From contig CAZUWM010000003.1 of NCBI GenBank assembly GCA_964624155.1, forward strand, positions 1-61,396: a stretch of 61,396 nucleotides of DNA, in the 5' to 3' direction. The translations under genes were made by a program, and so were the position numbers. Below are positions 23,367 through 50,670 of this stretch, piece after piece. The stretch comes from an uncultured Planctomycetales bacterium. GTDB lineage: Bacteria > Omnitrophota > Gorgyraeia > Aquiviventales > Aquiviventaceae. Below the pieces are notes generated by a model that had not been told where the DNA came from, ran no database searches, and saw nothing but the letters and a program-made list of their open reading frames with translations. Each line of letters opens with the position of its first letter. The stretch's first letter is position 1.

Positions 23367-24185
23367 TCACCCATCACCTTCGTTGAGGATGTGCACGATC
23401 TGCTTCGCGAAGGAGGGATGCGCAAGAATCATTTGTGGACCGCTGAACGAGGGGCGGCCCGAGAAGTCGCACATTACGCGCCCGGTCGCGCGGGCGAAGG
23501 CGGCCATCGGCGCGATGTCCCACACCTTGACGCCGTACTCGATCACCGCATCGACATAGCCGCGGATCAACCAGAGATGGCCGGCGCAGTCGCCGTAGGC
23601 TCGTTCAAGAAAACACGACTTGACCAATCGCTGAAACCCGTTCCAATACGGCGTCGGCATCCACCATTTTGAGCCGCCGTGGAAGATCGCCGCATCACGC
23701 AGCGCCGGCGGCCTCGGGGCTCGCGGCAATAACACGCGAAGGCGGCCCTGGCGCTCATAGGGGGGCGTTCGAAGCCCGACACCGATGAACGTCTTCAACG
23801 CCGGAAACCGGCAGGCGCCGAGGACGGGCTTGCCCCGTTCGACGCGCCCGATCAGGGTGCCCCACGTCGGCAGTCCGCGCGAGAAGGCGCGCGTGCCGTC
23901 GATCGGATCGACCGTCCAGTACGTCGCCCTCGGTTGCGCGGACGGCCCTGCCTGCGTCCACCCTGGAGGCAGGCCGAGCTCCTCTCCGACGATGACCTCG
24001 CCGGGAAAGGCGCGCCCCAGCTCGCGGCGCAGGAACTCCTCGATCGTGCGGTCCGCAATCGTGACCGGTGACTGATCGGACTTGCGCTCAACACGCAGGC
24101 GGGTGCGGAAATAGCGCAGGGCGATCCGCTGGCACTCGGCCGTTTTCGCTTCAGCCCACTCTAAACGTTCATCGCGCAGACGCAT
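23367..24185 (-). CDS. Inositol monophosphatase family / histidinol-phosphatase (HisN-like)
   Basis: KSDQSPVTIAD, GEE, DPIDGTRAF, WDIA. Confidence 0.85.
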   Translation of the reverse strand: MRLRDERLEWAEAKTAECQRIALRYFRTRLRVERKSDQSPVTIADRTIEEFLRRELGRAFPGEVIVGEELGLPPGWTQAGPSAQPRATYWTVDPIDGTRAFSRGLPTWGTLIGRVERGKPVLGACRFPALKTFIGVGLRTPPYERQGRLRVLLPRAPRPPALRDAAIFHGGSKWWMPTPYWNGFQRLVKSCFLERAYGDCAGHLWLIRGYVDAVIEYGVKVWDIAPMAAFARATGRVMCDFSGRPSFSGPQMILAHPSFAKQIVHILNEGDG

Positions 24186-26439
24186 GTCGGATCAGGTTGA
24201 GGGCGGAGCCGGCCTTGAACCAGCAGATCTGTTCGTCGGTCAGCGAATGTCCCAGCGTGATTGTCGTCGTCCCGTCGGGCCGGTGGACGATCGCCGTCAC
24301 CGGTTTGCCGGGCGCCAACGCCTTCAAGCCGGTGAGGCTGATGCGAACGTCCGATTGGATCGCGTCGTAATCCGCCGACTTCGTCAACGTCAGCGGCAGG
24401 ATGCCCTGTTTCTTCAGATTCGTTTCATGTAACCGGGCGAAACTTTTGGCGATCACCGCCTTGCACTTCAGGTGGCGGGGCGACATCGCAGCGTGCTCGC
24501 GGCTTGAGCCTTCGCCGTAGTTGTCATCACCCACCGCCACCCATCCCAATCCTTCCGCTTTGTAGTGACGCGCAACTTCCGGGATGGGCTTTTCCTTCCC
24601 ATCGAGCTGATCGATCGCCGTACCGGTCTTGCCGGTAAAGACATTCTCCGCCGCGGTAAACATGTTGTCGCTGATCTTATCCAAATGGCCGCGAAATCGC
24701 AGCCACTTGCCTGCCGGCGAGATGTGATCGGTGGTACATTGGCCTGCCACTTTGATCAATACCGGCAGACGTTCGAAGTCGAGCCCGTTCCACGGCCGAA
24801 ATGGCTCCAACACTTGCAACCGTTCGCTGCCCGTCGGCACGAGCACGGCGATCGTCTTGCGCTCTGTCTCCGGCAGGGGCGGCAAGAAACCCTCCGTACC
24901 CTGCGCGAATCCATTGGACGGTAGCTCCGGTGCCGACGGGGCTTCGAGTGTGACCATTCGACCGTCCGGAGCCTTCAGGGGATCGGCCAATGGATTGAAT
25001 CGCAAGTCCGCCGCAAGCGCCATGGCGGTGACGATCTCCGGACTGCCCATGAATGCCAGCGTCTCGGCGGAGCCATCGTTACGTCGTGGGAAGTTGCGGT
25101 TAAACGAGGTCAAGATCGAATTAACCTCGCCGGACGTGATGTCGTCCCGTTTCCACTGACCGATGCATGGCCCGCAGGCGTTGGCCAGTACCGTGCCGCC
25201 GATCGCCTCGAGCGCTTTCAATTGTCCGTCGCGTTGGATCGTCTGATAAATCTGATCCGAGCCCGGCGTGATCAAGAAATAACACTTCGCTTTCAAGCCG
25301 GCTCGCCGCGCTTGCTCGGCCACCGCCGCGGCCCGCCCGATATCCTCGTAGGAGGAATTCGTGCAACTGCCAATCAGCGCCACCTTGATCTGCGGCGGCC
25401 AGCCACCCTGTTCGAGGTCCTTGCCCAACTGCGAGATGGGACGCGCCGCATCGGGTGAGCGCGGCCCCACGATGTACGGCTCAAGGGTGGTCAGATCAAT
25501 CTCGATGATCTCATCAAAGAATCGCTTCGGATCGTGCTCGACCTCCGGATCCGCGATCAGCGAAGCGCGATGCTGCTCGGCCAGTTGCGTAAGTTCCGTA
25601 CGATCCGTGGCGCGCAGATACGTGCTCATCCGCTCATCAAATGGAAACACTGAGGTCGTCGCCCCCAGCTCCGCGCCCATGTTGGTGATCGTCGCCTTAC
25701 CGGTGCAACTGATCGACGCCGTGCCGGGGCCGAAATATTCGATGATCTTGTTCGTCCCGCCCTTGGTCGTCAGGAGGCCGCATACTTTTAGGATCACGTC
25801 CTTCGGCGAAGTCCACCCCTGAAGCCGTCCGGTCAGATGCACGCCGACGAGTTTGGGACACTTCACTTCCCACGGAAGGCCTGACATCACATCCGCCGCA
25901 TCCGCCCCCCCGACCCCGATGGCCAGCATCCCCAGGCCGCCGGCATTGGGCGTGTGCGAATCGGTGCCGATGATCAACCCGCCGGGAAACGCGTATTGTT
26001 CAAGGAACACCTGGTGGATGATGCCGGCCCCTGGCTGCCAGAACCCCATCCCATAGCGCTGCGAGGCGGAGCGCAGGAAATCGTAGACCTCGCGGTTCGC
26101 TTCCAGGGCCGCTTTCATGTCGTCGGAGGCCCCGACGCGCGCCTGGATGAGATGGTCGCAGTGGACCGTCGTCGGCACCGCTACGGTGTCGCGCCCCGCC
26201 AACATGAACTGGAGGATCGCCATCTGAGCGGTGGCATCCTGCATGATCACCCGGTCGGGATAGAGCGTGAGGTAACTCGTGCCGCGGACAAACTCTTGAG
26301 TGGCCGGATCCGCGACATGGGCGGCGAGGATTTTCTCCGAAAGCGTCAGCGGCCGCCCCAACCGCTTGCGCAGCACGACCTGTTTCTCCGCCAGCCTCGT
26401 GTACAAGGTCTTGATCGCGTCGATCTCTACGGCGGTCAT
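24169..26439 (-). CDS. Aconitate hydratase (mitochondrial-type AcnA family)
   Basis: MQDATAQMA, HCDHLI, DSHTPNAGG, IGSCTNSSYED, NACGPCIGQW, TTDHISPAG, GSSREHAA. Confidence 0.93.
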   Translation of the reverse strand: MTAVEIDAIKTLYTRLAEKQVVLRKRLGRPLTLSEKILAAHVADPATQEFVRGTSYLTLYPDRVIMQDATAQMAILQFMLAGRDTVAVPTTVHCDHLIQARVGASDDMKAALEANREVYDFLRSASQRYGMGFWQPGAGIIHQVFLEQYAFPGGLIIGTDSHTPNAGGLGMLAIGVGGADAADVMSGLPWEVKCPKLVGVHLTGRLQGWTSPKDVILKVCGLLTTKGGTNKIIEYFGPGTASISCTGKATITNMGAELGATTSVFPFDERMSTYLRATDRTELTQLAEQHRASLIADPEVEHDPKRFFDEIIEIDLTTLEPYIVGPRSPDAARPISQLGKDLEQGGWPPQIKVALIGSCTNSSYEDIGRAAAVAEQARRAGLKAKCYFLITPGSDQIYQTIQRDGQLKALEAIGGTVLANACGPCIGQWKRDDITSGEVNSILTSFNRNFPRRNDGSAETLAFMGSPEIVTAMALAADLRFNPLADPLKAPDGRMVTLEAPSAPELPSNGFAQGTEGFLPPLPETERKTIAVLVPTGSERLQVLEPFRPWNGLDFERLPVLIKVAGQCTTDHISPAGKWLRFRGHLDKISDNMFTAAENVFTGKTGTAIDQLDGKEKPIPEVARHYKAEGLGWVAVGDDNYGEGSSREHAAMSPRHLKCKAVIAKSFARLHETNLKKQGILPLTLTKSADYDAIQSDVRISLTGLKALAPGKPVTAIVHRPDGTTTITLGHSLTDEQICWFKAGSALNLIRHASAR

Positions 26440-26511
26440 TGCGTTCTCCGATCTTCATTATATATCAACTCACCCCCATACGCATCTTCACCACTTTGCT
26501 GTGGCAACCGC

Positions 26512-26540
26512 TTGATGGTCCAAGAAGAATGAGGTATAAT
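26512..26540 (+). promoter_or_regulatory. Sigma70 promoter of the riboswitch leader
   Basis: TTGATG(26512)-N17-TATAAT(26535) in an AT-rich intergenic region. Confidence 0.65.
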
Positions 26541-26621
26541 TACTTTACAATTTAGAAGTTTAGAAAAGGTTAGGTAATCTCACGATAAATCCGCCACAGG
26601 GCATGGCGGACCCGCCAGGCA

Positions 26622-26749
26622 AGTTGGCGGGGGCAAATCCCGAGCGATCGGGAGACGTCCTGAAAGGGATCCCCCCAGGGTTGATTCGCGAGCGAATCAT
26701 GGGGGGGCAAAGCCGCGGATCCTACGAACGGACAGCCGGGCTGCCGAAC
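26622..26749 (+). ncRNA. c-di-GMP-I (GEMM)-like riboswitch with a 50-nt insertion
   Basis: GGCAAA-TCCCGA-GCGA-TCGGGA-GAC-[26657-26706]-GCAAAGCCGCGG..GGACAGCCGGGCTGCCGAA matches the GEMM layout. Confidence 0.75.
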
Positions 26750-26823
26750 CCTTCGACAGGCTCAGGGTTCAGTCCTGAGCAGAGTCGAAGGACCGAAGAG
26801 AATCGGCAGCCCGGTTTTTGTTT
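26736..26823 (+). terminator. Intrinsic terminator overlapping the aptamer 3' strand
   Basis: CCGGGCTGCCGA (26736-47) pairs perfectly with TCGGCAGCCCGG (26803-14), followed by TTTTTGTTT. Confidence 0.75.
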
Positions 26824-26835
26824 CTACGAGGTCTG

Positions 26836-29800
26836 ATGCAACGTAGATCACAGCATCCCTTCCTTAATATACTCCTCAGTGCAGCCCTTGTGGTTGGACA
26901 GGGCCAACCAGTTGCGCTGGCGGCCGACCGTCGCTCCTCTTTAACCCCCTCACCCTCGCCAACCCCATCACCAACCCCGGATCCCACTCCTTCGCCGACG
27001 CCTTCCCTCTCTCCCTCACCCACGCCGGCCGCCCACCCAGGACGGACCGCCCCTCCTGCGCGATCCGCCGTCACGCTGCAATCAACCCTTGGACGGGCAG
27101 CCTCGGCGGCGTCCACCGTTGGTCCTGCGACGACCGTTCCAACGGGTTTCAGTGACGTCTACGTGCGCGGCACGCAGCTCATGGTCCGCCGCCGGCAGGC
27201 TGACGGCTCGCTGGCCGAGGCACAGCCATACCTCGTCAAAGGTGTCACATGGTCACCGGCGACACGGGCGCCGAGGGACGGGCCCGATCCACGGACTGGC
27301 AGACTCGTGCCGTATGGCTTCTTCTTCGACGGCCCCTGGCGCGCCCCCGGCTTGCAGGGCTACGAGCTGCTGGGCTACTGGCAGCGCGCGCGGTTCGCCG
27401 CGCATTACGCCGCCGATCTCGCCCTCATCGCGCAGATGCACGCCAACACCGTGCGCGTCTACACGGATCTGGGCAACACCCCCGCCGAGGGGCTGCGCGT
27501 GCTCGATGAGTGCTACCGCCGCGGCATCATGGTCATCCTGACCGTGGCATCAGCCAAGGAGGACGTCGACAGCGGCCGCTACCTCGAGCTGGTCAAACGC
27601 TACAAGGATCACCCCGCCATCCTCATGTGGTCGCTGGGGAATGAATGGAACCTCAATCGCTACTTCGGCTATACCATCGATGAGGCGATCCGCGCAACCG
27701 ACTCAGCCGCGCAGACCATCAAGCAACTCGATCGGATGCACCCCGTCACCTCGTCGCTTTCGGATCGCTTCACGGAGGGACGCGACGGCATCACCTGGAT
27801 CGTCCGAAACGTGCCGTCGGTCGACGTGTGGGGGCTCAATGTCTACCGGGGGGCCAGCTTCGGCAACCTCTTCAGCCAGTGGAATGCCATCACGACGAAA
27901 CCGTGTTACCTCAGCGAGTTCGGCACCGACTCCTTCTTTACCCAGCGCTACAAGACGGTGAACGGCTTCCAGGCAGATGACGTCGTCGGACAGGAAGATC
28001 GCCCACGACAGGCGGAGTATGTCCTGGGGCTTTGGAAGGAGCTAAAACTCCGTCTCTCTGCTCTCGATCCCACGAAACGCTGCCTCGGCGGCGCTGTCCA
28101 TACGTTCCAGGACGCCCTCTATTTCGTCGGCTCGTTCCACTTCGGCCTCGGCGGACTCGTCGACTACGACGGCCCTGACCGAAGACCGGGAACGGCTGAC
28201 GATGACACGAGCTACGACGAGTACAACCCCGAGGGCTTGGTGATCGTCGGCGGCCATCCGGATCACGTCGCCAACGAAGAATACTTTGGCCTCGTGGACG
28301 CTGATCGGAATCCTAAACCTGCCTACACCGCCTTGCAGCAGCTCTACGCTCAACTCTCTGTCCCTCCGACGGTCGCCAACCGCCCGCCCGTCCTGGAACC
28401 CATTCCCAATCAGACCGCGAGAGTCGGCGAGGCGAAGACCTTTCCCGGCCTGCTGCGCTTCTCTGACCCCGACGGCCAGGTCCCGACCTTTGTGGTCGTC
28501 AGCGGCGGACCGAACGGTCTCGTCGTGCGCCCGACTCCGACCGTCCCCGGTGTGGCCGACGTGTTCTGGCCCGCCGTCCCTCAACCCGGCACCTGGACGT
28601 TGACCGCCATCGTCCCGGATCCCCAGGAGGGCAATCTCAATGGCCCGCTCGCCGCCCGTCGCCAGTTCACCGTGAGCGTGCAGGCCGCGAATCGCCCTCC
28701 GATCGTCGCATCCTGTGAGACCACGGAAGACGCCTCGCTCATGACCTTATCGTTTGAAGACGTCATGCGCTGTCTGACCGATGCCGCCGTTTCGGAGCCG
28801 TCAAAACGACGTCTCGTTGGCATCCGGGCTGCGCCGACTACCCAGAACCATCTGACCTCACGCCAGGTCTTCACCCTCTTGACCCACCCACAGGTGCCTG
28901 ATTCGGTGAAGGCGGTCACTGTGCAGCTTCGGCGATTCGATCCAGGCGTTGTTGCGATGCAACAGGGGTTCCAAACGATCCTAATCCGTCCGGAGGCAGA
29001 TTTTTCCACTCCGCCTCAGACCGTGGAGACGTTTTTCAGCGCCATCACCAACGTCTACGGCTTCACCGCCGCGTTCAAGCAATACATGCAGTCAGAGTTG
29101 TTTTTCAAAGGGAACAACTTACAATCAGAGGAGCTTGGCAACGGCTACGGTGAGAATCTATTGGTCCTGGTTAGTTCCGGCGCGCACTGGCTCGCCGTCC
29201 ACGAACTCGATCACACATTCTGGGAATGGGAACGCGCGCAGAAAGGGCCATCGATCACTGAAGCGCTCATCCACGCGGTGTATGACGTCGCCACTGGCCG
29301 CATCCCTGTGGCGAAAGCGGAGATCGCCCAGCGTGCTCGCGAGGCGTTGTTCGACCGACACCCCAACGCGTTCCCCCCGAAAGCCGATCAGGCGATCTAT
29401 TCGTGGGAGGAGGTTAAGGCGAAACTTGATGCCATCGATGGCCTCCACGTCCGAACGGCCTTTTGGCCGTGGACCGTGACACGAGAACTGCCTCCTGAGC
29501 TATGGCGATTTTGGAGCGGCATGCTCGGTCCAGAACTCCCACCGGCCACGCGTCACCAGATTCGCCTCGGTAGTCCTAGCGGTCCACCTCCATCAAACAC
29601 CCCAGCAGCCAACCGGCCGCCGACGATTCAGTGGACCAAGGTCTACGATCCAGGTGGATCGATCCTCGGCTTCGTCACCGGCCGGCCGATCACCTTCGAA
29701 GCACAAGCGACTGATCCGGACGGCAAGACCGTGACCTACACATGGGACTTCGGCGATCAGACGACCGCCACCGGCTCAACCGTGCAACATCCCTACGCCC

Positions 29801-30048
29801 GTCCAGGCTCTTATACCGTGACCCTGCGCGTGAGCGACGGCCAGTCCACAGCGACGAAATCAATCCCGATCACCGTCCAAGCCACCAACCCGCCGCCGGT
29901 TGCCGGACAAAATGGGCCGCAGCCTGGCGTGACCGCTGATTCCTCCCTCCCCCAGCGCAAGACGACCCCCACGCGACAACCGGCGGGGCGAGATCCTGCC
30001 CGCCCCGGCATAACGGGTCGGGCCGGGGAGCCTGTCGAAGGACCGTGA
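26836..30048 (+). CDS. Large secreted protein: clan GH-A (GH2-like) barrel, Ig-like module, HExxH region, PKD domain
   Basis: Signal peptide, P/S/T linker, ANTVRVY, LGNE, YLSEFG, NRPPVLEPIPNQT, HELDH, YTWDFGD..H.Y..PG.YTVTLRV. SD GAGGT before ATG 26836. Confidence 0.85.
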   Translation: MQRRSQHPFLNILLSAALVVGQGQPVALAADRRSSLTPSPSPTPSPTPDPTPSPTPSLSPSPTPAAHPGRTAPPARSAVTLQSTLGRAASAASTVGPATTVPTGFSDVYVRGTQLMVRRRQADGSLAEAQPYLVKGVTWSPATRAPRDGPDPRTGRLVPYGFFFDGPWRAPGLQGYELLGYWQRARFAAHYAADLALIAQMHANTVRVYTDLGNTPAEGLRVLDECYRRGIMVILTVASAKEDVDSGRYLELVKRYKDHPAILMWSLGNEWNLNRYFGYTIDEAIRATDSAAQTIKQLDRMHPVTSSLSDRFTEGRDGITWIVRNVPSVDVWGLNVYRGASFGNLFSQWNAITTKPCYLSEFGTDSFFTQRYKTVNGFQADDVVGQEDRPRQAEYVLGLWKELKLRLSALDPTKRCLGGAVHTFQDALYFVGSFHFGLGGLVDYDGPDRRPGTADDDTSYDEYNPEGLVIVGGHPDHVANEEYFGLVDADRNPKPAYTALQQLYAQLSVPPTVANRPPVLEPIPNQTARVGEAKTFPGLLRFSDPDGQVPTFVVVSGGPNGLVVRPTPTVPGVADVFWPAVPQPGTWTLTAIVPDPQEGNLNGPLAARRQFTVSVQAANRPPIVASCETTEDASLMTLSFEDVMRCLTDAAVSEPSKRRLVGIRAAPTTQNHLTSRQVFTLLTHPQVPDSVKAVTVQLRRFDPGVVAMQQGFQTILIRPEADFSTPPQTVETFFSAITNVYGFTAAFKQYMQSELFFKGNNLQSEELGNGYGENLLVLVSSGAHWLAVHELDHTFWEWERAQKGPSITEALIHAVYDVATGRIPVAKAEIAQRAREALFDRHPNAFPPKADQAIYSWEEVKAKLDAIDGLHVRTAFWPWTVTRELPPELWRFWSGMLGPELPPATRHQIRLGSPSGPPPSNTPAANRPPTIQWTKVYDPGGSILGFVTGRPITFEAQATDPDGKTVTYTWDFGDQTTATGSTVQHPYARPGSYTVTLRVSDGQSTATKSIPITVQATNPPPVAGQNGPQPGVTADSSLPQRKTTPTRQPAGRDPARPGITGRAGEPVEGP

Positions 30049-30122
30049 TCCCTGATCCATAAATAAACCCGAGATTGCTATGCATCATCAGATGTGGTAT
30101 TTTACGCAGTGAAGGTAACCCC

Positions 30123-30323
30123 ATGCGTACCACCCTTGATCTGAATGAGAAGTTGTTGTCCCAAGCCATGGCGGCTGCACACACGAAGACGAAGAAAGCA
30201 ACGGTGGAGCGATCGTTGCGTGAATTGATCCGCGCCGCCCACATCGAACGGCTCATCACCCGACGCGGAGAGGGGACGACGCTGACCCTCCGCACGCTGT
30301 CCCGCATGCGTCGGGATGCGTAA
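30123..30323 (+). CDS. vapB: VapB-family antitoxin
   Basis: MRTTLDLNEKLL..AM..TKTKKATVERSLRELI; promoter TTGCTA-N17-TATTTT at 30075-30103. Confidence 0.85.
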   Translation: MRTTLDLNEKLLSQAMAAAHTKTKKATVERSLRELIRAAHIERLITRRGEGTTLTLRTLSRMRRDA

Positions 30324-30735
30324 GCCGCTCGTCTTGGTCGATTCGTCCATCTGGATTCCCTTCCTGCGGAGTCGAACAGCCGATCCGGCGGCGGAACTCC
30401 TGATGGGGCTGCTTCGTGACAAGCGGGTCGCGACCAACTGGCTGATCCGGCTGGAACTGCTCAGTGGAACGGCCACACACCAGGCCTATGAGTCGCTCGA
30501 TGCAGATCTGGCCGCGCTCCATCAGCTCCCGCTGACAGAGAAGGTGTTTCACGCGGCCAGCCTGCTACGATGGCGGCTCCATCGCAAGGGTGCTTCCATT
30601 CCGGTGGTCGATACCCTGATTGCGGCCTGCGCCATCTTCTACGCTTGCCCACTGCTGGAAGACGATGCTCACTTCCGACTGATCGCCAAACACGCCCCGC
30701 TTCATCTTCATCTTTCGTCAGGGCTCCACATTTGA
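30316..30735 (+). CDS. vapC: PIN-domain toxin
   Basis: LVDSSIWI, ELLSG, VDTLIAACA, LLEDDAHF. Confidence 0.9.
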   Translation: MRKPLVLVDSSIWIPFLRSRTADPAAELLMGLLRDKRVATNWLIRLELLSGTATHQAYESLDADLAALHQLPLTEKVFHAASLLRWRLHRKGASIPVVDTLIAACAIFYACPLLEDDAHFRLIAKHAPLHLHLSSGLHI

Positions 30736-30771
30736 CACGCCGGCTGGCACCTCCACCCCCCCGCGCGCAAG

Positions 30772-30877
30772 CCGTGAGCCCTGCTTCGCCAAGGCTTCGC
30801 AGAGGCCTCTCCGAAGCCCTGCTGCGCTGAAGCGAAGCTCCGGCTTCGCAGAGGCGAGCGCGAAGCGCGGAGGAGGG
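30772..30877. repeat. REP-like palindromic cluster (CTTCGCCAAGGCTTCG family)
   Basis: ctgcttcgccaaggcttcgcag, ccgaagcc, gcgaagctccggcttcgc. Confidence 0.6.
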
Positions 30878-30891
30878 CCCTGATCCGCCGA

Positions 30892-31256
30892 TTGGAAATC
30901 CGAGAATTCAGGAGGAGAGATGACCACGAAAATCGTCACCTCGCCGGTCGGCGCGAAAGCCCAGGTTACCCTCCCGAAACTCGTGCGGGAGGCGCTGCAT
31001 TTGACGGCGCAGCAGGACTTGGTTGGCTTCGTGATCTATGGAGGCCGCGTGGCATTGACGCGCATCGAACCGGTGCCCTCCAGCGATCCGTTCACGGACG
31101 AGGAGTGGAAGAAGATCGACCGGCTGACTTCCCAGACCCCCGCCGCCGTGGCAGAGAACGCCGCGGATTCCTTGCGCTACTTGAAGCGTCATCTCGGCCG
31201 CGCGTAATGCGGTATGCCTATCAACCTTCGTTTCTCGAGACCACCCGCCATCTCTC
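30892..31256 (+). repeat. 365-bp direct repeat, copy 1 (copy 2 at 32192-32556)
   Basis: Appears identical at an offset of exactly 1300 bp; identical 95-aa translations. Confidence 0.92.
30920..31207 (+). CDS. AbrB/MazE/SpoVT-fold antitoxin, copy 1
   Basis: KAQVTLPKLVREALHL..DLVGFVI..GRVAL; AGGAGG SD. Confidence 0.8.
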   Translation: MTTKIVTSPVGAKAQVTLPKLVREALHLTAQQDLVGFVIYGGRVALTRIEPVPSSDPFTDEEWKKIDRLTSQTPAAVAENAADSLRYLKRHLGRA

Positions 31257-31371
31257 TTACGCCCAAGCGACCAAGCTGTTGAAGGCCATCCAGAAGTTCC
31301 AGCATGCTATTGAGACGTCCCAGTGGCCTCAGGGGTTAGGCCTCACGCATCTGCGCAACGAGGATGGATAA
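31207..31371 (+). pseudogene. Truncated RelE/ParE-like toxin (54 aa)
   Basis: Homologous to the N-terminal half of 32507-32782; stops at HLRNEDG*. Confidence 0.7.
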
Positions 31372-31489
31372 GTGTCAGACGCTTTCGAACCGTCGTCCTC
31401 CCCTCCCGCGTGTCCGAAGCCTCTTGCGAGACGATGGGCGGTTGACAGTTCATGAGGGGAAGTGTTAAAGTTTAGGTGAGGGTACGTTT

Positions 31490-31705
31490 ATGCATCCGTC
31501 AGTGGGTCTCACGACGATTTCCTATGCGAAATATCAGCGTCGCTATGGCGGCAAGTTCATCGCCCGCCACGACGGGGAGGTCCTGGCAAGCGGCGCCAGC
31601 TATCGGGCGTTGTTGCAGGCGATCCGAAAACGCCGCCTGAGGCGACAAGACGTCATTGTGGGCTACGTCCCCCCCAAAGACGCCATTTGTATTTATGTCA
31701 GTTGA
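31490..31705 (+). CDS. Small DUF5678-like protein
   Basis: KYQRRYGGKFIARHDGEVLASG; promoter TTGACA(31442)..TGnTAAAGT upstream. Confidence 0.7.
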   Translation: MHPSVGLTTISYAKYQRRYGGKFIARHDGEVLASGASYRALLQAIRKRRLRRQDVIVGYVPPKDAICIYVS

Positions 31706-32105
31706 CTTCCCGATCGGGATCAAGGTCATTTCCCTCGGTCGAGTCGCCAATCCCGTCGTGCCCCTCCTTGTCCGGACTCGCCAGGGCTATGTGCCATTCG
31801 ATTTCCTCGTCGATACGGGCGCTGATTGTTCCATGATGCCAGCGTCTATCGCTGAGACAGAGCTCGGCGTGTCTCTCAAACGCGCTCCACAAGAGACATT
31901 CTTCGGAATCGAGGGCAGCGGCCTGCGTGTCTACCGAGGATGGGTTGCTCTGAAAATCGGCCCGTATCCTTTGCGCGTCCGCTGCGTCTTCTCACCTCAT
32001 GAACACACTCCGTTGATCCTCGGACGAATGGATGTATTCCGTCGTTTCACGATCACCTTCGACAATCACCTCCGTCGCATCCGATTCACCAAGCTGGCTC
32101 ACTAG
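31695..32105 (+). CDS. Retropepsin-like (clan AA) aspartyl protease
   Basis: FLVDTGADCS, ILGRMDVF; overlaps the upstream small ORF. Confidence 0.85.
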   Translation: MSVDFPIGIKVISLGRVANPVVPLLVRTRQGYVPFDFLVDTGADCSMMPASIAETELGVSLKRAPQETFFGIEGSGLRVYRGWVALKIGPYPLRVRCVFSPHEHTPLILGRMDVFRRFTITFDNHLRRIRFTKLAH

Positions 32106-32220
32106 TCTTTCATACCAGCTTTCCTTAACCAGCCACAACACAACCTCTTCGATCCCTTGACACGACCGACCTACCCTGGTTATACTTATAGTTGGAAATC
32201 CGAGAATTCAGGAGGAGAGA

Positions 32221-32507
32221 TGACCACGAAAATCGTCACCTCGCCGGTCGGCGCGAAAGCCCAGGTTACCCTCCCGAAACTCGTGCGGGAGGCGCTGCAT
32301 TTGACGGCGCAGCAGGACTTGGTTGGCTTCGTGATCTATGGAGGCCGCGTGGCATTGACGCGCATCGAACCGGTGCCCTCCAGCGATCCGTTCACGGACG
32401 AGGAGTGGAAGAAGATCGACCGGCTGACTTCCCAGACCCCCGCCGCCGTGGCAGAGAACGCCGCGGATTCCTTGCGCTACTTGAAGCGTCATCTCGGCCG
32501 CGCGTAA
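32221..32507 (+). CDS. AbrB/MazE/SpoVT-fold antitoxin, copy 2 (ATG at 32220)
   Basis: Identical to 30920-31207; promoter TTGACA(32157)-N18-TATACT upstream. Confidence 0.8.
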
Positions 32508-32782
32508 TGCGGTATGCCTATCAACCTTCGTTTCTCGAGACCACCCGCCATCTCTCCCCCACGCAAGCAACCAAACTCCTGAAGGCGGTGGAGCGATTCC
32601 AGGCGGCGCTTGAAAGCCGCCAATGGCCCAAGGGATTAGGCGCCACGCATCTGCGAGATGACTATTTTGAATTCCGCGCGGACCTCCATACGCGGGTGAT
32701 CTACCGACGGAGCCGTGACCTGATTCAGTACGTCTTGTGCGGCAGTCACGACGAGGTCAGGCGTTTCTTGAAAACGCGGTAA
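32507..32782 (+). CDS. RelE/ParE-like toxin (91 aa)
   Basis: TAATG coupling to the antitoxin; Y..SFL, LRDDYFEFRADLHTRVIY, GSHDEV. Confidence 0.75.
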   Translation: MRYAYQPSFLETTRHLSPTQATKLLKAVERFQAALESRQWPKGLGATHLRDDYFEFRADLHTRVIYRRSRDLIQYVLCGSHDEVRRFLKTR

Positions 32783-32789
32783 CGACTCC

Positions 32790-32819
32790 TTGACAAGAGG
32801 GGCGGGAGCCTGGTATAGT
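32790..32819 (+). promoter_or_regulatory. Strong sigma70 promoter upstream of the cspA leader
   Basis: TTGACA-N18-TATAGT with a TGn extended -10. Confidence 0.75.
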
Positions 32820-32883: not shown

Positions 32884-32926
32884 AACCGCAGGGCGATCTG
32901 GTCGGTCGTCCAGCGGTTTTTTATTT
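32884..32926 (+). terminator. Intrinsic terminator/attenuator inside the cspA upstream region
   Basis: AACCGC-A-GGGCGATC-tggtc-GGTCGTCC-A-GCGGTT then TTTTATTT. Confidence 0.65.
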
Positions 32927-32929
32927 GAG

Positions 32930-33163
32930 GCCGTCACTTACGGAGCGGGAACGAACGTAAGTGACAGGGCCGAAAATAACCCCGCACCCAGCGCAATGGA
33001 CGTTGGAGCGTGAAATGAGTTTTAGCGCGTTTCGAACTGAACAGACCTCACACACAGCCGACCGCCGTTGGTTCGGCTGGGTGCGGGGTTCAATTCGCAC
33101 ACGCAACTTACGTTCACTAGCGTTCCGTAAGTTGCGTGCTCATTGAAGGGGGGTGTACGACAG
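32930..33163 (+). ncRNA. Unrecognised structured leader RNA, copy 1 (cspA)
   Basis: 15-bp stem 32978-92/33076-90; core 109/118 identical to the reverse complement of 41823-41940. Confidence 0.7.
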
Positions 33164-33367
33164 ATGCCGAGAGGCACCGTGAAGTGGTTCAGCGACCAGA
33201 AGGGGTATGGCTTCATCACCCCGGAGGACGGGTCGAAGGACGTGTTTGTCCATCACAGCGCCATTAAAGCCGACGGCTTTCGCAGCCTTCGGGAAGGCCA
33301 ACAGGTGGAGTTCGAGATCACCCAAGGACCGAAAGGTCCGCAAGCCTCCAACGTGGCGATAGCCTAA
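33164..33367 (+). CDS. cspA: Cold-shock protein
   Basis: [15 protein letters not shown] (RNP1), DVFVHHSAI (RNP2), [10 protein letters not shown]. Confidence 0.97.
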
Positions 33368-39520: not shown

Positions 39521-41149
39521 TCAAGTCCATGCGCCCCGCAACGCCGTGAGGGCATCATCCGTCACAGCGGAGGGCGCGCGATCGGTGGAGAGCTTCGTCC
39601 ACTGGGAGGACGTCCAGCCACGGACGGGCTCAAACCCTTCCCTCAGGCGATCATAGTGTTCTGGCTTGGCCTCTGAGAGATCACGCCTCTGTGCATATCG
39701 TGCCCCGAGGCGCTGGATCGCCACCGCTCGCGGCGCCGTGCACTCGAAGAAATGAAACGAGGCGCCGTGGCGTCGCGCGATCTGAGCCAGCGTCCGGCGG
39801 CCTTCGGCTTTCGAGAAGGTCCCATCGCAGATGACCGAGCGGCCCTGGCGCACGAGGGCGTCGGCGCGCTGGATGAGCCGCTGGTAAACCAGCGCGGAGA
39901 CGCGCGGCGCATAGAGCCCATCGGCAAATCCTGACCCCGCCTCTGCTTCGCCGCCTGGCTTCGCAGCAGCAAGCCGCCGAAATCGCGCAAATTCTTTCAG
40001 TCGAATCTCATCCGTCCGAAGCCAGACCGCGCCCAGTCGCTCGGCGAGGGCCTTCGCGAGTGTGCTCTTCCCTGTCCCGATGAGCCCGCCGACGGCGATG
40101 AGTCGAGGCGGCGCAAACTGGCGGGTGTAGCGAAGCGCCAGGGCGAAGTGCCGCCGGGACAGCTCCCGAAGCCGACGACCTTCTGGAGTACGTGGATGTT
40201 GGAGCCACGCCAGTCCCCTGACCTTCCCTCGCACGAGAGTCCGATGGCACTTGTAGAACGGGAGCAGTAGATCACCGGTCGAATCGTTGAACCCTCGTCG
40301 ATACTGAGCGACCAACGCGTCGGCCAACCGGCGTTTCCCTCGGAATTCCAAATCCATCACGAGGAAGCTCAGGTCGTTCACCGCATCACCGCACCGAAAC
40401 GCCGGTTGAAACTCCACGCAGTCGAAGATCGTCACCGGATCAGTCACGCAAATATTTTCACAGCGCAAGTCGCCGTGCCCGTCAACGATCCGTCTCTCAC
40501 GGATTCGCTGCTGCAGTAGGGGTCCATGGAGGGTGAGAAATTGACGATACGCCGACTCCAGGAATCGGCGATCCGACTCAGAGACGAGCCGCCCGACGAA
40601 GGGGGCGCACTCCTGCAGATTGCCTAGCACCAACTGGGCGACGGCTGCTGGGGTGCCGAAGCGAGTAATTTGCGCGCTGCGTGCCGCGCGCTTGAAGAAC
40701 CGAACCAAGGTCTGCCCGATGTGGAGCATGTCGCCTCGGCCGACTCGGCGTCTTGCCACGAGCTGATCGAGCATGCGCGCTTCGGGCAGTCGGCGCATCT
40801 TGACGAGCCATTCAACCGTCTTCCCCCGCCCCCCAAGCTGAAGCGCTCCTCCTCGTTCCACGACCGGCACAAGACCGAGATAGATGCGGGGAGCTAAGCG
40901 CCGATTGAGAGCAAGCTCCAAACCACACCATCGCTTGCGCAGCGAAAGCGTGGAGGCGTCGAGGAACGGAAACTTCACCGGCTTCTTGAGCTTGTACGCG
41001 AACGATCCGGCGAGGAAGACATGGGAGACATGCGTCTCGCGGCGCTCCACCCGATCGACCGCGTGAGGATAGTTCGCGGGATCTGAGAAGAACGAGACGA
41101 GACGACGTTCGTGCGTGGCCAGAACGGTGGACTTACGTGAGTTTCCCAA
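39521..41149 (-). CDS. Bifunctional aminoglycoside-phosphotransferase-like / AAA_33 P-loop kinase
   Basis: ETHVS, YKLKKPV, DGHGDLR.ENI, FDCVEF; GGLIGTGKS (Walker A). Start uncertain (TTG 41149 or 41194). Confidence 0.88.
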   Translation of the reverse strand: MGNSRKSTVLATHERRLVSFFSDPANYPHAVDRVERRETHVSHVFLAGSFAYKLKKPVKFPFLDASTLSLRKRWCGLELALNRRLAPRIYLGLVPVVERGGALQLGGRGKTVEWLVKMRRLPEARMLDQLVARRRVGRGDMLHIGQTLVRFFKRAARSAQITRFGTPAAVAQLVLGNLQECAPFVGRLVSESDRRFLESAYRQFLTLHGPLLQQRIRERRIVDGHGDLRCENICVTDPVTIFDCVEFQPAFRCGDAVNDLSFLVMDLEFRGKRRLADALVAQYRRGFNDSTGDLLLPFYKCHRTLVRGKVRGLAWLQHPRTPEGRRLRELSRRHFALALRYTRQFAPPRLIAVGGLIGTGKSTLAKALAERLGAVWLRTDEIRLKEFARFRRLAAAKPGGEAEAGSGFADGLYAPRVSALVYQRLIQRADALVRQGRSVICDGTFSKAEGRRTLAQIARRHGASFHFFECTAPRAVAIQRLGARYAQRRDLSEAKPEHYDRLREGFEPVRGWTSSQWTKLSTDRAPSAVTDDALTALRGAWT

Positions 41150-41753
41150 CGGTGTACGATGACCGAATGCTCGCCCAGATCGCCAGCATCCCAAGGCCGA
41201 TGGCCAAGAGGAGCGCGGGGGCGCTTATCGCGCCGTAGTGAGCCGGCGCGAGCATGCCGAAGAGCATGGGACCGGAGAGGAACGTATTGATCCGAGAGGT
41301 CAGCAGCGCCCGTTTCCTCACCGCCGGAGCCTGTTCGGCCGGGACTTTGCCGGTCAGCAGACGCTTCTGGGCCGGCCAGATGATGAACCACACGTTGAAC
41401 CACATGATGGTTCCCAACAGCATACCGAACAAAATCCACATGGCCCGCTGGGTCATTCCCATCGTATCGATCAACAAACTGGTCGGCCCAAATCCTACCC
41501 CTGGGGTATAGAAGTAGGTCAGGACAAACAGCGTCAGGCCGGCGAGGAAGGTGATCATCGCGCCCCACCGGAACCACCACAAGACTCGCGGCATCAGTTG
41601 CGGATTGACGGCCTTTTTGGTGGCGTCATCGAGCGAACCTTGGAGGGGGACATTGACGAAGTTGAAAAAATAGAGATGTCCGATCCAGGTAATGCCCGCG
41701 ATCACATGGAGCCATCGGACGATCAAGTGGACGTTGCTGTAGAGATCCGGCAT
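41133..41753 (-). CDS. Membrane protein of the urate-oxidase-N / PuuD-like family
   Basis: RWLHVIAGITWIG.LYFFNFV, WWFRWGA, IM.FNVW.IIWP.Q, SRINT.LS.PMLF.M. Confidence 0.75.
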   Translation of the reverse strand: MPDLYSNVHLIVRWLHVIAGITWIGHLYFFNFVNVPLQGSLDDATKKAVNPQLMPRVLWWFRWGAMITFLAGLTLFVLTYFYTPGVGFGPTSLLIDTMGMTQRAMWILFGMLLGTIMWFNVWFIIWPAQKRLLTGKVPAEQAPAVRKRALLTSRINTFLSGPMLFGMLAPAHYGAISAPALLLAIGLGMLAIWASIRSSYTVGKLT

Positions 41754-41986
41754 GGTCGCTCACCCTCCTTCAATGAAGGCACACGTTACGGAGTCCGCAG
41801 GACGACGTAACGTGTCGTGCCTGAATTGAACCCCGCACCCAGCCGAACCAACGTTGGTCGTCTAGGTGTGAGGTCTGCTCAGTTCGAAACGCGCTGAAAC
41901 TCATTTCACGCTCCAACATCCATTGTGCTGGGTGCGGGGTACGTTCGGCCAGCCCTTTACGTCACCGTGTTCCGTAAAGGGCTGCC
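41754..41986 (-). ncRNA. Unrecognised structured leader RNA, copy 2
   Basis: Homologue of 32930-33163; promoter TTGATG-N16-TATAAT at 42020-41993. Confidence 0.7.
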
Positions 41987-42003
41987 TCACGTATTATACA
42001 CCC

Positions 42004-44205
42004 TCACCGAACCGCATCAAGGAGTTCCACCATCTTCGCGACATCGGTGGTCGGCAGATTACACAGATAGTTCTGGCAGACGTAGGCGGTGGATTGGCCC
42101 TGAAGCGGTAGTTGATTCGCCACAAACGGGATCAGGGCTTCGATCGCGCTGGCCTTTGACCCGCTCGGATGAAACGCCGCAACCGCTCTGGGGAGGAAGC
42201 GACGGTGAACCGCCTGAATCATGGACTGAGTCTGTGGAGTGGAGGGATCGCCGGCGATGACGATCTCTTGCGAGGGGCCCAGCCAATGATCCAGGGCGAT
42301 GAGAAACTGGGGAAAGGCGTGCGGAGCGCGGGCCACCTCTCCCGAGAAGGCTTCGATGAGCCGCTTCGCCTTCTCCTGCAGGACGTCATCCATCGTCAGC
42401 GTGCCTAAGCGAACCAACACCAGGGCGGCCACCGAGTTGCCTGACGGAACCGCGCCGTCGTACAACTCCTTGGTGCGGGCGATGAGGGTTTCATTCTTGG
42501 CGCCGCCCAGGAACAACCCGCCTGAGGAGTCATCCCAGAAGAGCCGCACCATCTCGTTCGTCAACCGTTTCGCCTCCGAGAGCCAGCGCGCGTCGAACGT
42601 CGCCTCGTAGAGCTCCAGCAAGCCCCAGCTCAAGAAGGCGTAGTCATCGAGGAACGCTGGGATGGCGGCTTCCCCGTCTCGATAGCGATGCAGGAGCCTC
42701 CCCTTCTGTTGAAGACGATCCAGCACGAATGACGCCGCCCGCGTCGCCTCCTCTGCATACTGCGGCTCTCCCAACGCTTTGGCCCCGTAGGCGAGGACGC
42801 CGATCATCAGGCCGTTCCAGTCGGTGAGGATTTTGTCATCGCGGTGCGGCCGCTTCCGACGGTTTCGAGCCTCCAACAGTTTGGCCCGCGCGGCGTCAAG
42901 CCGCGTCTGAACCGACGGGTCGGGGGATGTCGCCGTCGTCAGAATCGTCGTGCCGTTCTCTCCGCCAAACTGATTGGCGGATCCGCCATGCTGTGTGGCG
43001 GAAAAGTTCCCGGCCAGCGTCACGCCAAACGCTTCCATGACGAAGGCGGCGTCTTCCTCGCCAACCACCGTCTTGATCTCCTCCGGCGTCCAGACGTAAA
43101 ACTCCCCTTCCTTCCCCACCTCGCCAGCATCCTCTGCGGAATAGAACGCGCCCTCGGGACCGCGCAGATCCCGCAGCACGTAGGTGAAGATGTCCCTCGC
43201 CGTCTGGGCGTACGAGGCGTTGCCGGTCACTTGATAGGCTTCGAGGTACGTCCGCGCCAGCAGCGCCTGATCGTAGAGCATCTTCTCAAAATGCGGGACC
43301 AGCCACTGCTCATCTGTCGAGTAGCGGTGGAAGCCTCCGCCCAGATGGTCGTGAATGCCGCCCCGCGCCATGGCATCCAGCGTTTCCTCGACCATCTTCA
43401 GCAGCTGGGGATCGCGCTGCCGATACCACACCCTCAACAGGAACGACAGCGCATGGCTGCGGGGAAACTTCGGGGCTGAGCCGAATCCGCCATGGGTGGG
43501 GTCATACTGGTTGCTGAACTGGACCGCCGCGGTTTGCAGTGTTTCAAGGCCCACGGACGACGAGACGGTGCGTTCGGCGCCGGCCTGCAGAGCTTGGGTA
43601 ATGGATTGACTCGAGGTGAGGAGGTCGTGGCGTTTGGTCTGCCAGGACTCGTGGATCGAGCGCAAGACCGTCTTGAACCCCGGTCGGCCGAACGCGTCCT
43701 CCGGAGGAAAATACGTCCCACCCCAAAACGGTTTGCCCTCCGGAGTCAAGAACACGGTCATCGGCCAGCCGCCTTGCCCCGACATCGCTTGGACCGCGCT
43801 CATGTAGAGCGCATCGAGGTCGGGACGCTCCTCCCGATCGACCTTGATCGAGACAAACCAGTCGTTCATCAATTTGGCAATCTCTGGACTCTCGAAGGAT
43901 TCCTGCTCCATGACATGACACCAGTAACAGGTGGAATAGCCGATAGAGAGCAGGATCGGCTTGTCTTCCCGCTTGGCGCGGGCCAACGCCTCCTCCCCCC
44001 ATGGATACCAGTCCACGGGGTTGTGGGCGTGCTGCAAGAGGTAGGGACTCTTTTCTTTAATCAGGCGATTGGATTGGCGAGCGGTCTGTTCCTGCGCCAT
44101 GCGCGTGGGCTCTGTAGTGGTCCGTGGACGGATGCCGGCCACCCACAGGGTAGCCGCCATCCCGGCGACCACGGCCATCAACAACCACCACTTCCTTTTT
44201 ACCAT
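42004..44205 (-). CDS. YyaL/SPATA20-like protein (DUF255 thioredoxin plus alpha/alpha-barrel)
   Basis: [58 protein letters not shown]. Confidence 0.93.
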
Positions 44206-49317: not shown

Positions 49318-50670
49318 TCATCGGGCGTTCTCTCGTACGAACTGCTCCACAAGCGGCCGAACCATTCGTTCTTTGGACAGCGGAAAGAAGTCGAAGAGCA
49401 TACAAAGCTCACTGACTGTTGAATGGACTAAATCGATCAGCTTGGGTTCAATGTCTTTCAGACGTTCTTTAATCCATGCCTCCGCTTCATCCTCAATACA
49501 CACTCGTTGAGTGTGCATCGTCATCGCCCGTCCAGGGTCACCTGCCGATAGGACCCGGCTTCGAAGCCCAGTGTACCGGATTCTGATCACGACTTTCTGT
49601 TCAGGTCCTACGTGAAGGGTTCGATACAGCCGGCTGATTCGCATGAGGGTTTCTGCGGTGCGGACAATCCGCGTATCCACGAAAATCTTCCCTTCGGATC
49701 GCTCATCTTCAAACAGCGTCTTCAGGAGATAAAACACCCGGTCTGTCCGAAGCGCCCAGTAGTCGAACGAAGATCGGCCCGTTAGTCCACCGGTCAGAAT
49801 GGTGGCTCGGATTCCGTCCTTATGAGGCTTTGGCGCATCTGCCGGTCGAGTCATTACCAGCCCGATCGGCCATCCGAATGAATGTACCTGGGTCTGCTCC
49901 ATGGCTCGCCGCAGCTCATCCTGCCGAAATTGCAGGGTTGTGTCCGGCGTCTGTCCCGTCGCTACTTTCCACGCGTCCTGCTGTGCGTTAACCACGGTAT
50001 CTGGAAGATAGGCGAGCACTTCCATCAAGCATTTGTCAAGTTGCCGAGTCTTCGCGATACCAAGCGCCTCTCGCCGCTCCTGCTCAACCCATGCTTTGAG
50101 GTTGTTGTACTCATCAGCAACTTTGACCTCTTCCGCATGGGCTTGGCGCGGTGGCCTCAAGATAAAATCAAAGTCACAGCCTGCCTTGCTCGCAAATCTC
50201 CGGAGATAGTCGATCGTGATCTTCTCCCGTCCTTGTTCGATTCCGGAGACGAACTGCTGGCTGCAGCCGAGCATCTCAGCCACTTCTCCTTGTGAGAGGT
50301 GCAGGGCTTCTCGACACTGGCGCAACTTGCTGGTCAATTCTTCAATGAACGGGTCAGGCTCACGAGGCTGCCTCTGGCGAAGCCTTACTCCGGAATGCTT
50401 AAACTCGCGGCTATACCGCTCGTAGGTGGCTCGCCAGAACGCCCCTTTCTCCTTGGTCCATTCATCCTTATTGACCTCTTGCTGGATGGCGTAGAACCGA
50501 CGACAAAATGCCAGCGGCTTAATCAAGGAGAACACCTGCTCAGGATCATCAACTCGTGCCAACAGGCGGGCAGCCACCCGGGGAAATTTGGGATTCTGCT
50601 CATCGGTCAAGATGTCCCGAATCTTCTCGATCGGCATGCCTAAATCCCAATACCAATTCTCACGTTTCAT
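49318..50670 (-). CDS. XRE HTH-containing multidomain protein with a large uncharacterised C-terminal domain
   Basis: Central LSQGEVAEMLGCSQQFVSGIEQG; ATGA overlap with the upstream NTase; AT-richer. Confidence 0.75.
   Translation of the reverse strand: MKRENWYWDLGMPIEKIRDILTDEQNPKFPRVAARLLARVDDPEQVFSLIKPLAFCRRFYAIQQEVNKDEWTKEKGAFWRATYERYSREFKHSGVRLRQRQPREPDPFIEELTSKLRQCREALHLSQGEVAEMLGCSQQFVSGIEQGREKITIDYLRRFASKAGCDFDFILRPPRQAHAEEVKVADEYNNLKAWVEQERREALGIAKTRQLDKCLMEVLAYLPDTVVNAQQDAWKVATGQTPDTTLQFRQDELRRAMEQTQVHSFGWPIGLVMTRPADAPKPHKDGIRATILTGGLTGRSSFDYWALRTDRVFYLLKTLFEDERSEGKIFVDTRIVRTAETLMRISRLYRTLHVGPEQKVVIRIRYTGLRSRVLSAGDPGRAMTMHTQRVCIEDEAEAWIKERLKDIEPKLIDLVHSTVSELCMLFDFFPLSKERMVRPLVEQFVRENAR

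Follow-up and report, generated by a model that had tools for sequence, protein, structure and literature searches.

The DNA considered here is a 61,396-nt stretch of contig CAZUWM010000003.1 from an uncultured bacterium (the whole stretch is called the window below), which carries two copies of a noncoding, hairpin-forming element that we call the cassette. Copy A lies on the forward strand in the 5′ leader of cspA, and copy B lies on the reverse strand in the leader of an unrelated gene for a PuuD-like membrane protein. An original prediction, made from the letters of the window, had described the element as a leader RNA present twice, with a two-state switch next to the ribosome-binding site (RBS), and had proposed that it was a new cis-regulatory RNA shared by a small regulon. 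From the arrangement of the two copies, the state of the orthologous leaders in related genomes, and the predicted folds, we have come to favor, with no great confidence, a mobile palindromic repeat over a switch. The genome was sampled through the 61-kb window, the frame of the cassette is known from three full instances (copies A and B and the cspA leader of a related locus, L041), and all structural and functional statements are computational.

Two copies of the cassette and their parts

The window had the content of an ordinary chromosome, with genes for NADH dehydrogenase subunits, aconitase, trehalose synthesis, and permeases. At the cspA site some 65 nt of leader came between a strong promoter and a terminator-like hairpin with a run of six U residues, after which stood the cassette, the Shine-Dalgarno (SD) box, and cspA; copy A terminated in TCATTGAAGGGGGGTG, from which a spacer of 8 nt led to the cspA ATG at 33164. 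At the second site copy B terminated in TCATTGAAGGAGGGTG and was followed by a 7-nt spacer and the ATG at 41753 on the minus strand. Both copies were co-oriented with their genes, that is, in the sense direction, directly 5′ of the SD box and before the ATG. The upstream end of the promoter of the PuuD-like gene overlapped the 3′ end of a DUF255 gene, and the copy B cassette began 3 nt past the −10 box; therefore, with the transcription start placed by promoter geometry, copy B should be essentially the whole 5′ untranslated region (UTR) of its gene, with its first hairpin at the extreme 5′ end. The coordinates of these features are collected in Table 1.

Positions 32979–33096 matched the reverse complement of 41823–41940 at 109 of 118 nt, and the similarity detected by blastn ran for 205 nt, from the first hairpin to the start codon, with 82% identity (E = 6e-51). 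Two probes from the core, of 18 and 22 nt, matched only at copies A and B, where chance would have given 0.07 and 0.00 matches, respectively. When the copies were compared by segment, 35 of 53 positions were identical in the 5′ flank, 100 of 109 in the central hairpin that we call the rod, and 47 of 61 in the 3′ flank. The rod was thus 92% identical between copies and the flanks 66–77%, and the rod evolves about three times slower than the flanks. Since 18% of positions are different in the two copies, an assembly artifact was rejected. The match itself, the placement of both copies before an ATG, and their shared SD-box endings, all reported in the original prediction, held when the sequence was read again; what it had taken for an unannotated, strongly structured leader element is confirmed as one, and its two occurrences share their orientation and their placement with respect to the SD box.

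Each cassette, of about 217 nt (218 nt in copy A, 217 nt in copy B), was noncoding, had inverted-repeat ends and hairpin potential, and was built in the same order: a TGAGGC start, a first hairpin (H1), the linker GGCCGAA..UA, the rod (H2), a second linker (L2) UUCAAUUC, a third hairpin (H3), and UCAU, directly after which came the SD box UGAAGG(G/A)GGGUG. H1 had a lower stem of the GGCC type and a 10-bp upper stem finishing in UUACG/CGUAA, and the rod was closed by a perfect, G+C-rich stem of 14–15 bp. The UUCAAU of the second linker could pair with AUUGAA in the segment just 5′ of the SD box (L3), with six of six pairs in both window copies and five of six in L041. The stems described earlier for copy A were found where they had been placed (32978–92/33076–90, 15 bp; 33101–12/33126–37, 12 bp), as were the long-range pairings of 32936–47 with 33121–32, which includes one G-U pair, and of 32953–62 with 33106–15. 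The inner stems of the rod were present in the RNAalifold consensus, in which the TTYAG/CTGAR stem showed an exchange of U-A for C-G. Compared with shuffled sequences, the two copies gave folding z-scores of −5.2 and −6.6.

As DNA, the cassette was a nested palindrome. The rod was 71% identical to its own reverse complement, and the ends of the cassette were complementary (TGAGGCA versus TGCCTTCA; TGAGGC(A) with (T)GCC(T)TCA). Four hairpins of the type TTACG...CGTAA occurred, all of them within the cassettes and none elsewhere in the window. A 5-nt direct repeat (left end TGARG, right end TGAAG) bracketed copy A, copy B, and the L041 cassette; it overlapped both the terminal complementarity and the native SD box. 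A description of copy B as inverted flanks around a direct rod was dropped, since direct alignment was as good or better.

Table 1. Positions in the window of the two cassettes, their parts, and the adjoining genes and signals
Feature	Position	Strand	Basis
cspA promoter, TTGACA, 18-nt spacer, TATAGT with TG extension	32790..32819	+	score 11/12
Terminator-like hairpin and U6 (AACCGC...GCGGTTTTTT)	32884..32922	+	conserved in 10 orthologous leaders
Cassette copy A (TGAGGCC ... GCTCAT; H1, linker, rod, linker, H3)	32926..33143	+	sequence, alignment
H1 copy A, lower stem GGCC/GGCC, 10-bp upper stem GTCACTTACG/CGTAAGTGAC	32929..32971	+	alignment, consensus fold
Rod copy A (H2; core of the original prediction), 113 nt, 15-bp closing stem AACCCCGCACCCAGC/GCTGGGTGCGGGGTT	32978..33090	+	fold, alignment, covariance model
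Linker L2 copy A (TTCAATTC)	33089..33096	+	UUCAAU pairs with AUUGAA of L3
H3 copy A, inverted copy of an H1-type hairpin (TTACG...CGTAA)	33097..33139	+	76% to reverse complement of L041 H1 region
L3 and SD box copy A (TCATTGAAGGGGGGTG)	33140..33155	+	TGAAGG onward is native leader; TGAAGG(G/A)GGG kept in empty-site L043 and L039
cspA, 67 aa, cold-shock domain	33164..33367	+	PF00313, E = 2.6e-32
PuuD-like membrane protein, 206 aa, Urate_ox_N domain only	41133..41753	-	domain and homologue searches
L3 and SD box copy B (TTCATTGAAGGAGGGTG)	41761..41777	-	sequence, alignment
Cassette copy B (TGAGGCA ... CCTTCAT)	41773..41989	-	sequence, alignment
H3 copy B	41778..41821	-	fold, alignment
Rod copy B	41830..41940	-	100/109 identical to copy A within closing stem
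H1 copy B (GCCCTTTACG/CGTAAAGGGC)	41947..41986	-	fold, consensus, alignment
PuuD-like gene promoter, TTGATG, 16-nt spacer, TATAAT	41993..42020	-	promoter scan; near-identical in cassette-free L039

Orthologous leaders and the empty site

Metagenome-assembled genomes with the label Candidatus Omnitrophica/Omnitrophota supplied the closest proteins; exact look-ups of the CspA and PuuD-like proteins of the window themselves returned no record. For the PuuD-like gene, the nearest relative, at locus L039, encoded a protein 92% identical to that of the window (87% at the nucleotide level). Its promoter, CTTGATGCGG..GGTGAGGGTGTATAATA, was nearly identical to that of the window and was followed by the same TGAAGGAGGG-ATGCCGGAT; between the shared promoter and SD segments there was just GCGCTC, which gave a cassette-free leader of 27 nt. 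Because a relative with the same promoter and the same SD box has a leader of 27 nt, copy B is, by this comparison, a recent insertion in the lineage of the window. Insertion into a leader of the 27-nt type is the behavior of a mobile repeat, an outcome that the original prediction had itself named beforehand as one that would speak against a regulator. Four other relatives (L001, L002, L003, and L040) had their own −10 box about 45–70 nt before the ATG and short, cassette-free leaders, and the rod was found in none of the five PuuD-like leaders. The ATGCCG that follows the cassette at both genes was rejected as a part of the repeat: because every PuuD-like homologue begins MPDLYSN, it is native to that gene, and the SD box is native at both sites.

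At the cspA site, synteny was kept among relatives, with aconitase on the opposite strand, cspA, an open reading frame (ORF) of 147 aa, and an HTTM/DCC1 gene, and 10 related leaders had the TTGACA promoter in the corresponding position. Between the U-run of the terminator-like hairpin and the ATG there were 33–43 nt in six of 11 cspA leaders and more in L045, L011, L010, L041, and the window (82, 123, 134, 162, and 247 nt, respectively). The orthologous leaders formed a ladder of states, six of them having no cassette. In L043, merely GTTTACGGATAACG separated the U-run from TGAAGGGGGGTG, which we take as a remnant state. L011 and L006 had H1 with two small nested hairpins, then CCGAAAAT and the SD box, an H1-only state. 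L041 had the parts in the order of the window, with H1 CCGACTTACGG..ACGTAAGTCGG, the first linker GGCTGAATGTGA, the second linker TGCAATTC, and the end TCATTGAAGGAGGTG; a hairpin of 28 nt replaced the rod, and its H3 was unrelated in sequence. The order shared by copy A, copy B, and L041 was therefore TGARGCC, H1, GGCYGAA, H2, TKCAATTC, H3, and TCATTGAAGG, and the linkers GGCYGAA, TKCAATTC, and TCATTGAAGG were conserved between the window and L041 even with synonymous sites near saturation. The rod was found in none of the 11 other cspA leaders, and the frame of H1, linkers, and H3 was shared only with L041 and in part with L011. Presence and absence at orthologous sites thus took the form of an empty site in L039, reduced cassettes in L043 and L011, and short leaders in the outgroups.

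The identity of cspA third-codon positions to those of the window was 86–89% for the cassette-poor L011 and L043 and 62% for the cassette-bearing L041. Because the window is nearer in cspA to L011 and L043 than to L041, the cassette frame would be either old and in the course of being lost in the nearest relatives, or acquired more than once.

Other hairpins occurred in the same part of the leader. In L011 (3471–3535; the same in L006–L009 and L044) H1 enclosed two tandem hairpins with the common stem TCCGCC...GGCGGA, a palindromic expansion, and in L010 (about 4870–4985), L042 (1–55), and L045 (about 890–925) the interval that separates the U-run from CGTGAA(A)GG was filled by hairpins of unrelated sequence. 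Stable hairpins that differ in sequence thus recurred across lineages immediately 5′ of the SD box. The terminator-like hairpin, directly upstream of the cassette and outside it, had six pairs changed on both sides. Found in L004, L010, L011, L013, L018, L024, L037, L041, L043, and L045, with the form AACCGC...GCGG and U6–7 and about 65–100 nt past the TTGACA promoter, it was conserved more widely than the cassette, and no Rfam family matched it; a Csp-dependent attenuator is one possible role, and the terminus of a distinct small RNA is another.

Searches for the element beyond these leaders gave no homologue. As the original prediction had held, the element fell into no recognized class: with Rfam 15, no family reached its gathering score anywhere in the window, and in the region of the element matches at E ≤ 10 were noise only, the cspA thermosensor family RF01766 scoring 12.1 bits against a threshold of 78, and this in the coding region (33236–33314). 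A covariance model of the rod, run over 401 kb of related loci, found only the two window copies and their antisense (38 and 32 bits), and blastn found no match to the rod in the 45 loci fetched. The 28-nt core pattern RYYRRRGCGTGAAATGAGTTYYRRYRYR had no match in genome_contigs or in metagenome_contigs, and the core probe GGCTGGGTGCGGGGTTCAA had none in viral_contigs, these being exact-pattern scans that miss diverged copies; a blastn search of plasmids and phages at the 'distant' setting also returned no match. The open sense frame of the rod, translated and compared with 1.84 billion representative proteins, yielded only repeat-inflated chance matches to large repetitive proteins. Within the loci and collections scanned, the rod is found only in this genome.

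The surroundings of both genes differed from those in relatives. Between aconitase (24169–26439, minus strand) and the cspA promoter, which are an adjacent pair in relatives, the window had about 6 kb of extra genes (26440–32790), among them those for a 1076-aa PKD/glycosyl-hydrolase protein, a PIN-domain protein (30316–30735), an aspartyl-protease-like ORF (31656–32105), and a 196-aa ORF of unknown function. Around the PuuD-like gene (39521–44205, minus strand), the order was rearranged relative to L001 and L002: a gene for an AAA_33/zeta-toxin-like kinase preceded the PuuD-like gene in relatives and followed it in the window, where a DUF255 thioredoxin-domain gene lay upstream. In L039, homology to the 3′ end of the window DUF255 gene persisted for about 45 nt beside the promoter, and the upstream gene was a different one. 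Elsewhere in the window (49318–51368, minus strand), a gene for a helix-turn-helix protein adjoined one for an AbiEii-type nucleotidyltransferase toxin, probably a type IV toxin-antitoxin pair.

Predicted folds and the proposed switch

With the competing pairings imposed on copy A, the free energy of the long-range (rod) ensemble minus that of the local ensemble was +0.4 kcal/mol at 0°C and −2.1 kcal/mol at 45°C. Copy A is therefore predicted to be nearly bistable, with a crossover near 10°C, and its minimum free energy (MFE) structure was the three-hairpin form at 5°C and the rod at 37°C. For copy B, the predictions favored the local fold by 14–23 kcal/mol at every temperature, and in L041 H3 is unrelated to H1. 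Thus, the two exclusive folds that had been proposed were nearly isoenergetic in copy A and found no counterpart in the other two instances. The apparent long-range alternative pairing arises because H1 and H3 are hairpins of a single kind, one inverted relative to the other.

The mean unpaired probability of the SD box, computed in silico for the free, local, and rod ensembles from 0°C to 45°C, remained between about 0.24 and 0.47, and that of the cassette-free L043 leader was similar, 0.42–0.46. A thermosensor acting by RBS occlusion was unsupported in silico, since the exposure of the SD box hardly varied with state or temperature. The MFE values for the sense and antisense strands were −101.9 and −102.3 for copy A, −106.8 and −109.4 for copy B, and −53.3 and −52.0 for the copy A rod. 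This predicted strand symmetry is as expected for a DNA palindrome, not for a strand-specific RNA. No expression platform was apparent, and the modeled folds gave no support to a two-state RBS switch shared by the copies.

The larger claim, of a new cis-regulatory switch, was not supported on comparison, as the 118-nt core was absent from every fetched orthologous leader of cspA and of the PuuD-like gene. Pairing in H1 and H3 was kept by compensation among the three sequences available, a number too small for a statistical test of covariation; the rod occurred in the 401 kb of related loci only as the two window copies. A regulon of two genes is possible, the support for it being limited to the duplication itself. 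For riboswitch hunting there is a caution in these results: a duplicated palindrome gives strong z-scores, apparent compensation, and an apparent two-state switch free of charge.

Origin and likely effect of the cassette

We consider the chances about even that the cassette is a non-autonomous palindromic repeat resembling a miniature inverted-repeat transposable element (MITE), prone to insertion and duplication and co-transcribed into the mRNA, and not a ligand-sensing or RBS-occluding switch. We favor this reading because of the empty site in L039, the graded series of cspA leaders, the restriction of the rod to this genome among the sequences scanned, and the nested inverted repeats, and also because of the strand symmetry, the complementary ends, and the TGARG/TGAAG repeats at the junctions of three cassettes. 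The cassette would then sit in a part of the 5′ UTR that varies, after the transcription signals and immediately before the TGAAGG SD box, the only part of these leaders to tolerate it. In one Omnitrophota-like lineage, the stretch of the cspA leader between the terminator-like hairpin and the SD box would gain and lose whole hairpins; in this genome the cassette would have acquired the rod, and a second, diverged, whole cassette would have entered the leader of the PuuD-like gene between its −10 box and its SD box.

As RNA, the cassette is predicted to form about 75 base pairs, in a fold that is independent of the RBS and leaves the SD box about as accessible as in cassette-free relatives. 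Because of this predicted independence, its likely effect would be on mRNA processing and decay. Two long, quasi-continuous duplexes, one in the rod and the other where H3 would stack on the L2/L3 helix, would be plausible substrates for RNase III, which is specific for double strands. Hairpins at the 5′ end can act as stabilizers of mRNAs, and a protective stem-loop might be provided by H3 at the foot of the SD box, in copy A after cleavage, or by H1 where the copy B transcript begins; CspA might work against such structure.

This proposal has direct precedents. The Correia element located between the mtrCDE promoter and its genes is transcribed into the mRNA and cut by RNase III (PMC2649163). 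Like the Correia elements (CREE/NEMIS, Neisseria) and the ERIC, BOX, and RUP MITEs, which are noncoding units of 100–250 bp with inverted ends and full-length hairpins, the cassette is present or absent between close relatives and, when inserted between promoter and gene, adds a hairpin to the mRNA. Unlike them, it has two copies here, compared with about 100–250 CREE per Neisseria genome; it shares no sequence similarity with them, has neither a clear TA-type target duplication nor a cognate insertion sequence (IS) in the window, and has a nested build (hairpin, rod, inverted hairpin) with both insertions exactly at the SD box; and its mobility is deduced from empty sites alone. In the Staphylococcus aureus cspA 5′ UTR, RNase III cuts a hairpin to give a shorter, more stable, and better translated mRNA, and CspA melts the hairpin and antagonizes its cleavage (PMC5815144). 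That structure, like the cassette, is a long hairpin in the 5′ UTR of a csp mRNA upstream of the RBS, and regulation there is by processing, not by occlusion. The cassette differs from it in having no sequence or structural homology to it, in being unconserved in orthologous leaders, and in standing before a non-csp gene as well; cleavage of the cassette and its binding by CspA are putative. The S. aureus cspB and cspC thermoswitches have mutually exclusive folds in paralogous leader copies within one genome (PMC8034633); with these and with the Escherichia coli cspA thermosensor RF01766 the cassette has exclusive folds in common, copy A being predicted to be bistable, whereas no pairing of an anti-RBS with the RBS is predicted and the bistability does not extend to copy B or L041. 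By analogy, the cassette, which lies outside every Rfam family, would have its nearest functional parallels in 5′-UTR MITEs of the Correia/ERIC type and in the cspA hairpin of S. aureus.

Several results weigh against a mobile repeat. There were only two copies in 61 kb, both of them sense and directly before an SD box, and no transposase domain was found by Pfam in any sizeable ORF of the window. The candidate target-site duplication is inseparable from the terminal complementarity or the native SD box, and the RNase III cleavage and the effect on stability are ones that we infer by analogy. The H1 upper stem had five doubly changed pairs among copy A, copy B, and L041 with no mismatch (read by hand; MAFFT agreed where it aligned the region correctly), H3 had seven, and the rod one, although three sequences are too few for statistics. 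Such compensated stems, together with conserved linkers, are to all appearance the classic signature of selection on RNA structure. Finally, to explain an identity of 92% in the rod beside 66–77% in the flanks, one must invoke gene conversion, by which two similar copies can be homogenized, or else purifying selection that acts on the rod.

It is possible, though we hold it only tentatively, that the cassette is instead an undescribed cis-regulatory module of cold-shock mRNA, responsive to temperature, CspA, or an RNase, which was copied to the PuuD-like gene and would bring that gene under post-transcriptional control of the cold-shock type. Its functional parts would be H1, the conserved single-stranded linkers, and the H3 and L2/L3 helix beside the SD box. 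The slow evolution of the rod is in its favor, as is the sameness of part order in copies A and B and L041 despite a third-codon identity of 62%; so too are the compensated pairs of H1 and H3, which are unbroken, the retention of the UUCAAU/AUUGAA helix, and the predicted bistability of copy A near 10°C. Moreover, regulation by Csp 5′ UTRs that contain long hairpins and adopt alternative folds is well established (PMC8034633; PMC5815144). However, the cassette is lost or reduced in the closest cspA relatives, L011 and L043, and absent from six other leaders; H2 is unconserved, with 28 nt in L041 and 113 nt here; and H3 of the window is an inverted copy of the H1 type, so that its loop is the complement in the RNA. 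Copy B lacks the bistability, the accessibility of the SD box is insensitive, and the strands fold alike. The apparent compensation also has another possible source, as template-switch repair of short DNA quasi-palindromes can produce compensatory changes or keep the palindromes perfect, and the likeness of the copies could reflect gene conversion. Such a module would be compatible with a mobile origin followed by domestication. A fuller version, which we regard as doubtful, is that the cassette acts post-transcriptionally on cold-shock mRNA in uncultivated Omnitrophota, with compensation maintained since before synonymous sites became saturated, that it is transposable and recruits genes, and that the rod is a platform for CspA or RNase III. 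If a module of this kind were real, it would be a portable cold-shock leader and a simple route to the growth of a regulon.

We think it unlikely that copy B arose without transposition, by ectopic recombination or gene conversion from a leader of the cspA type through microhomology at the SD box, with a functionless cassette as the product and with the identity of the rod maintained by continuing gene conversion between inverted copies 8.6 kb apart. The right junction does lie exactly at the shared TGAAGGRGGG box, and both the contrast between rod and flanks and the failure to find a transposase in the window fit such an origin. In contrast, the left junction has no extended homology, and the persistently paired stems are left unexplained. 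Also, H1 of copy B is closer to H1 of L041 (71%) than to that of copy A (66%), which suggests a donor other than copy A.

It is very improbable that a dimeric transcription factor uses the TTACG-N-CGTAA palindromes flanking the rod as its DNA operators. The four hairpins do share TTACG/CGTAA in both orientations, and L043 retains TTACGGATAACGTGAA, which resembles a 5-N5-5 site. This candidate was rejected because the half-sites are not evenly spaced: the window has spacings of 11, 13, 13, and 15 nt, L041 one of 12 nt, and L011 one of 55 nt; complementarity also persists outside the half-sites, where an operator does not need it, and the copy A sites lie about 100–300 nt downstream of the promoter. 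An origin of the IS200/IS605 or REP type, which has a TTAC-like target and subterminal hairpins, was unsupported, the TTAC here being inside stems. Scarcely credible is a 43-aa leader peptide encoded by the rod and translationally coupled to the downstream gene: an ORF of 43 codons (33005–33146, plus strand) has an SD-like GGAG, a 6-nt spacer, an ATG at 33015, and a TGA at 33144–33146 inside TCATTGAAGG, and its frame is open in both copies with the same TGA overlapping the SD box, but the nine differences in the core are three synonymous changes and six in four changed codons, the frame has no coding signature, the start region is buried in the rod, and the peptide has neither a real homologue among the 1.84 billion proteins nor an equivalent in L041.

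The mobile, MITE-like palindromic repeat is therefore the reading that we prefer. If it is correct, 5′ UTRs in an uncultivated phylum would be rebuilt by palindromic cassettes whose insertions fall exactly between the promoter and the RBS, in such a way that both are left intact.

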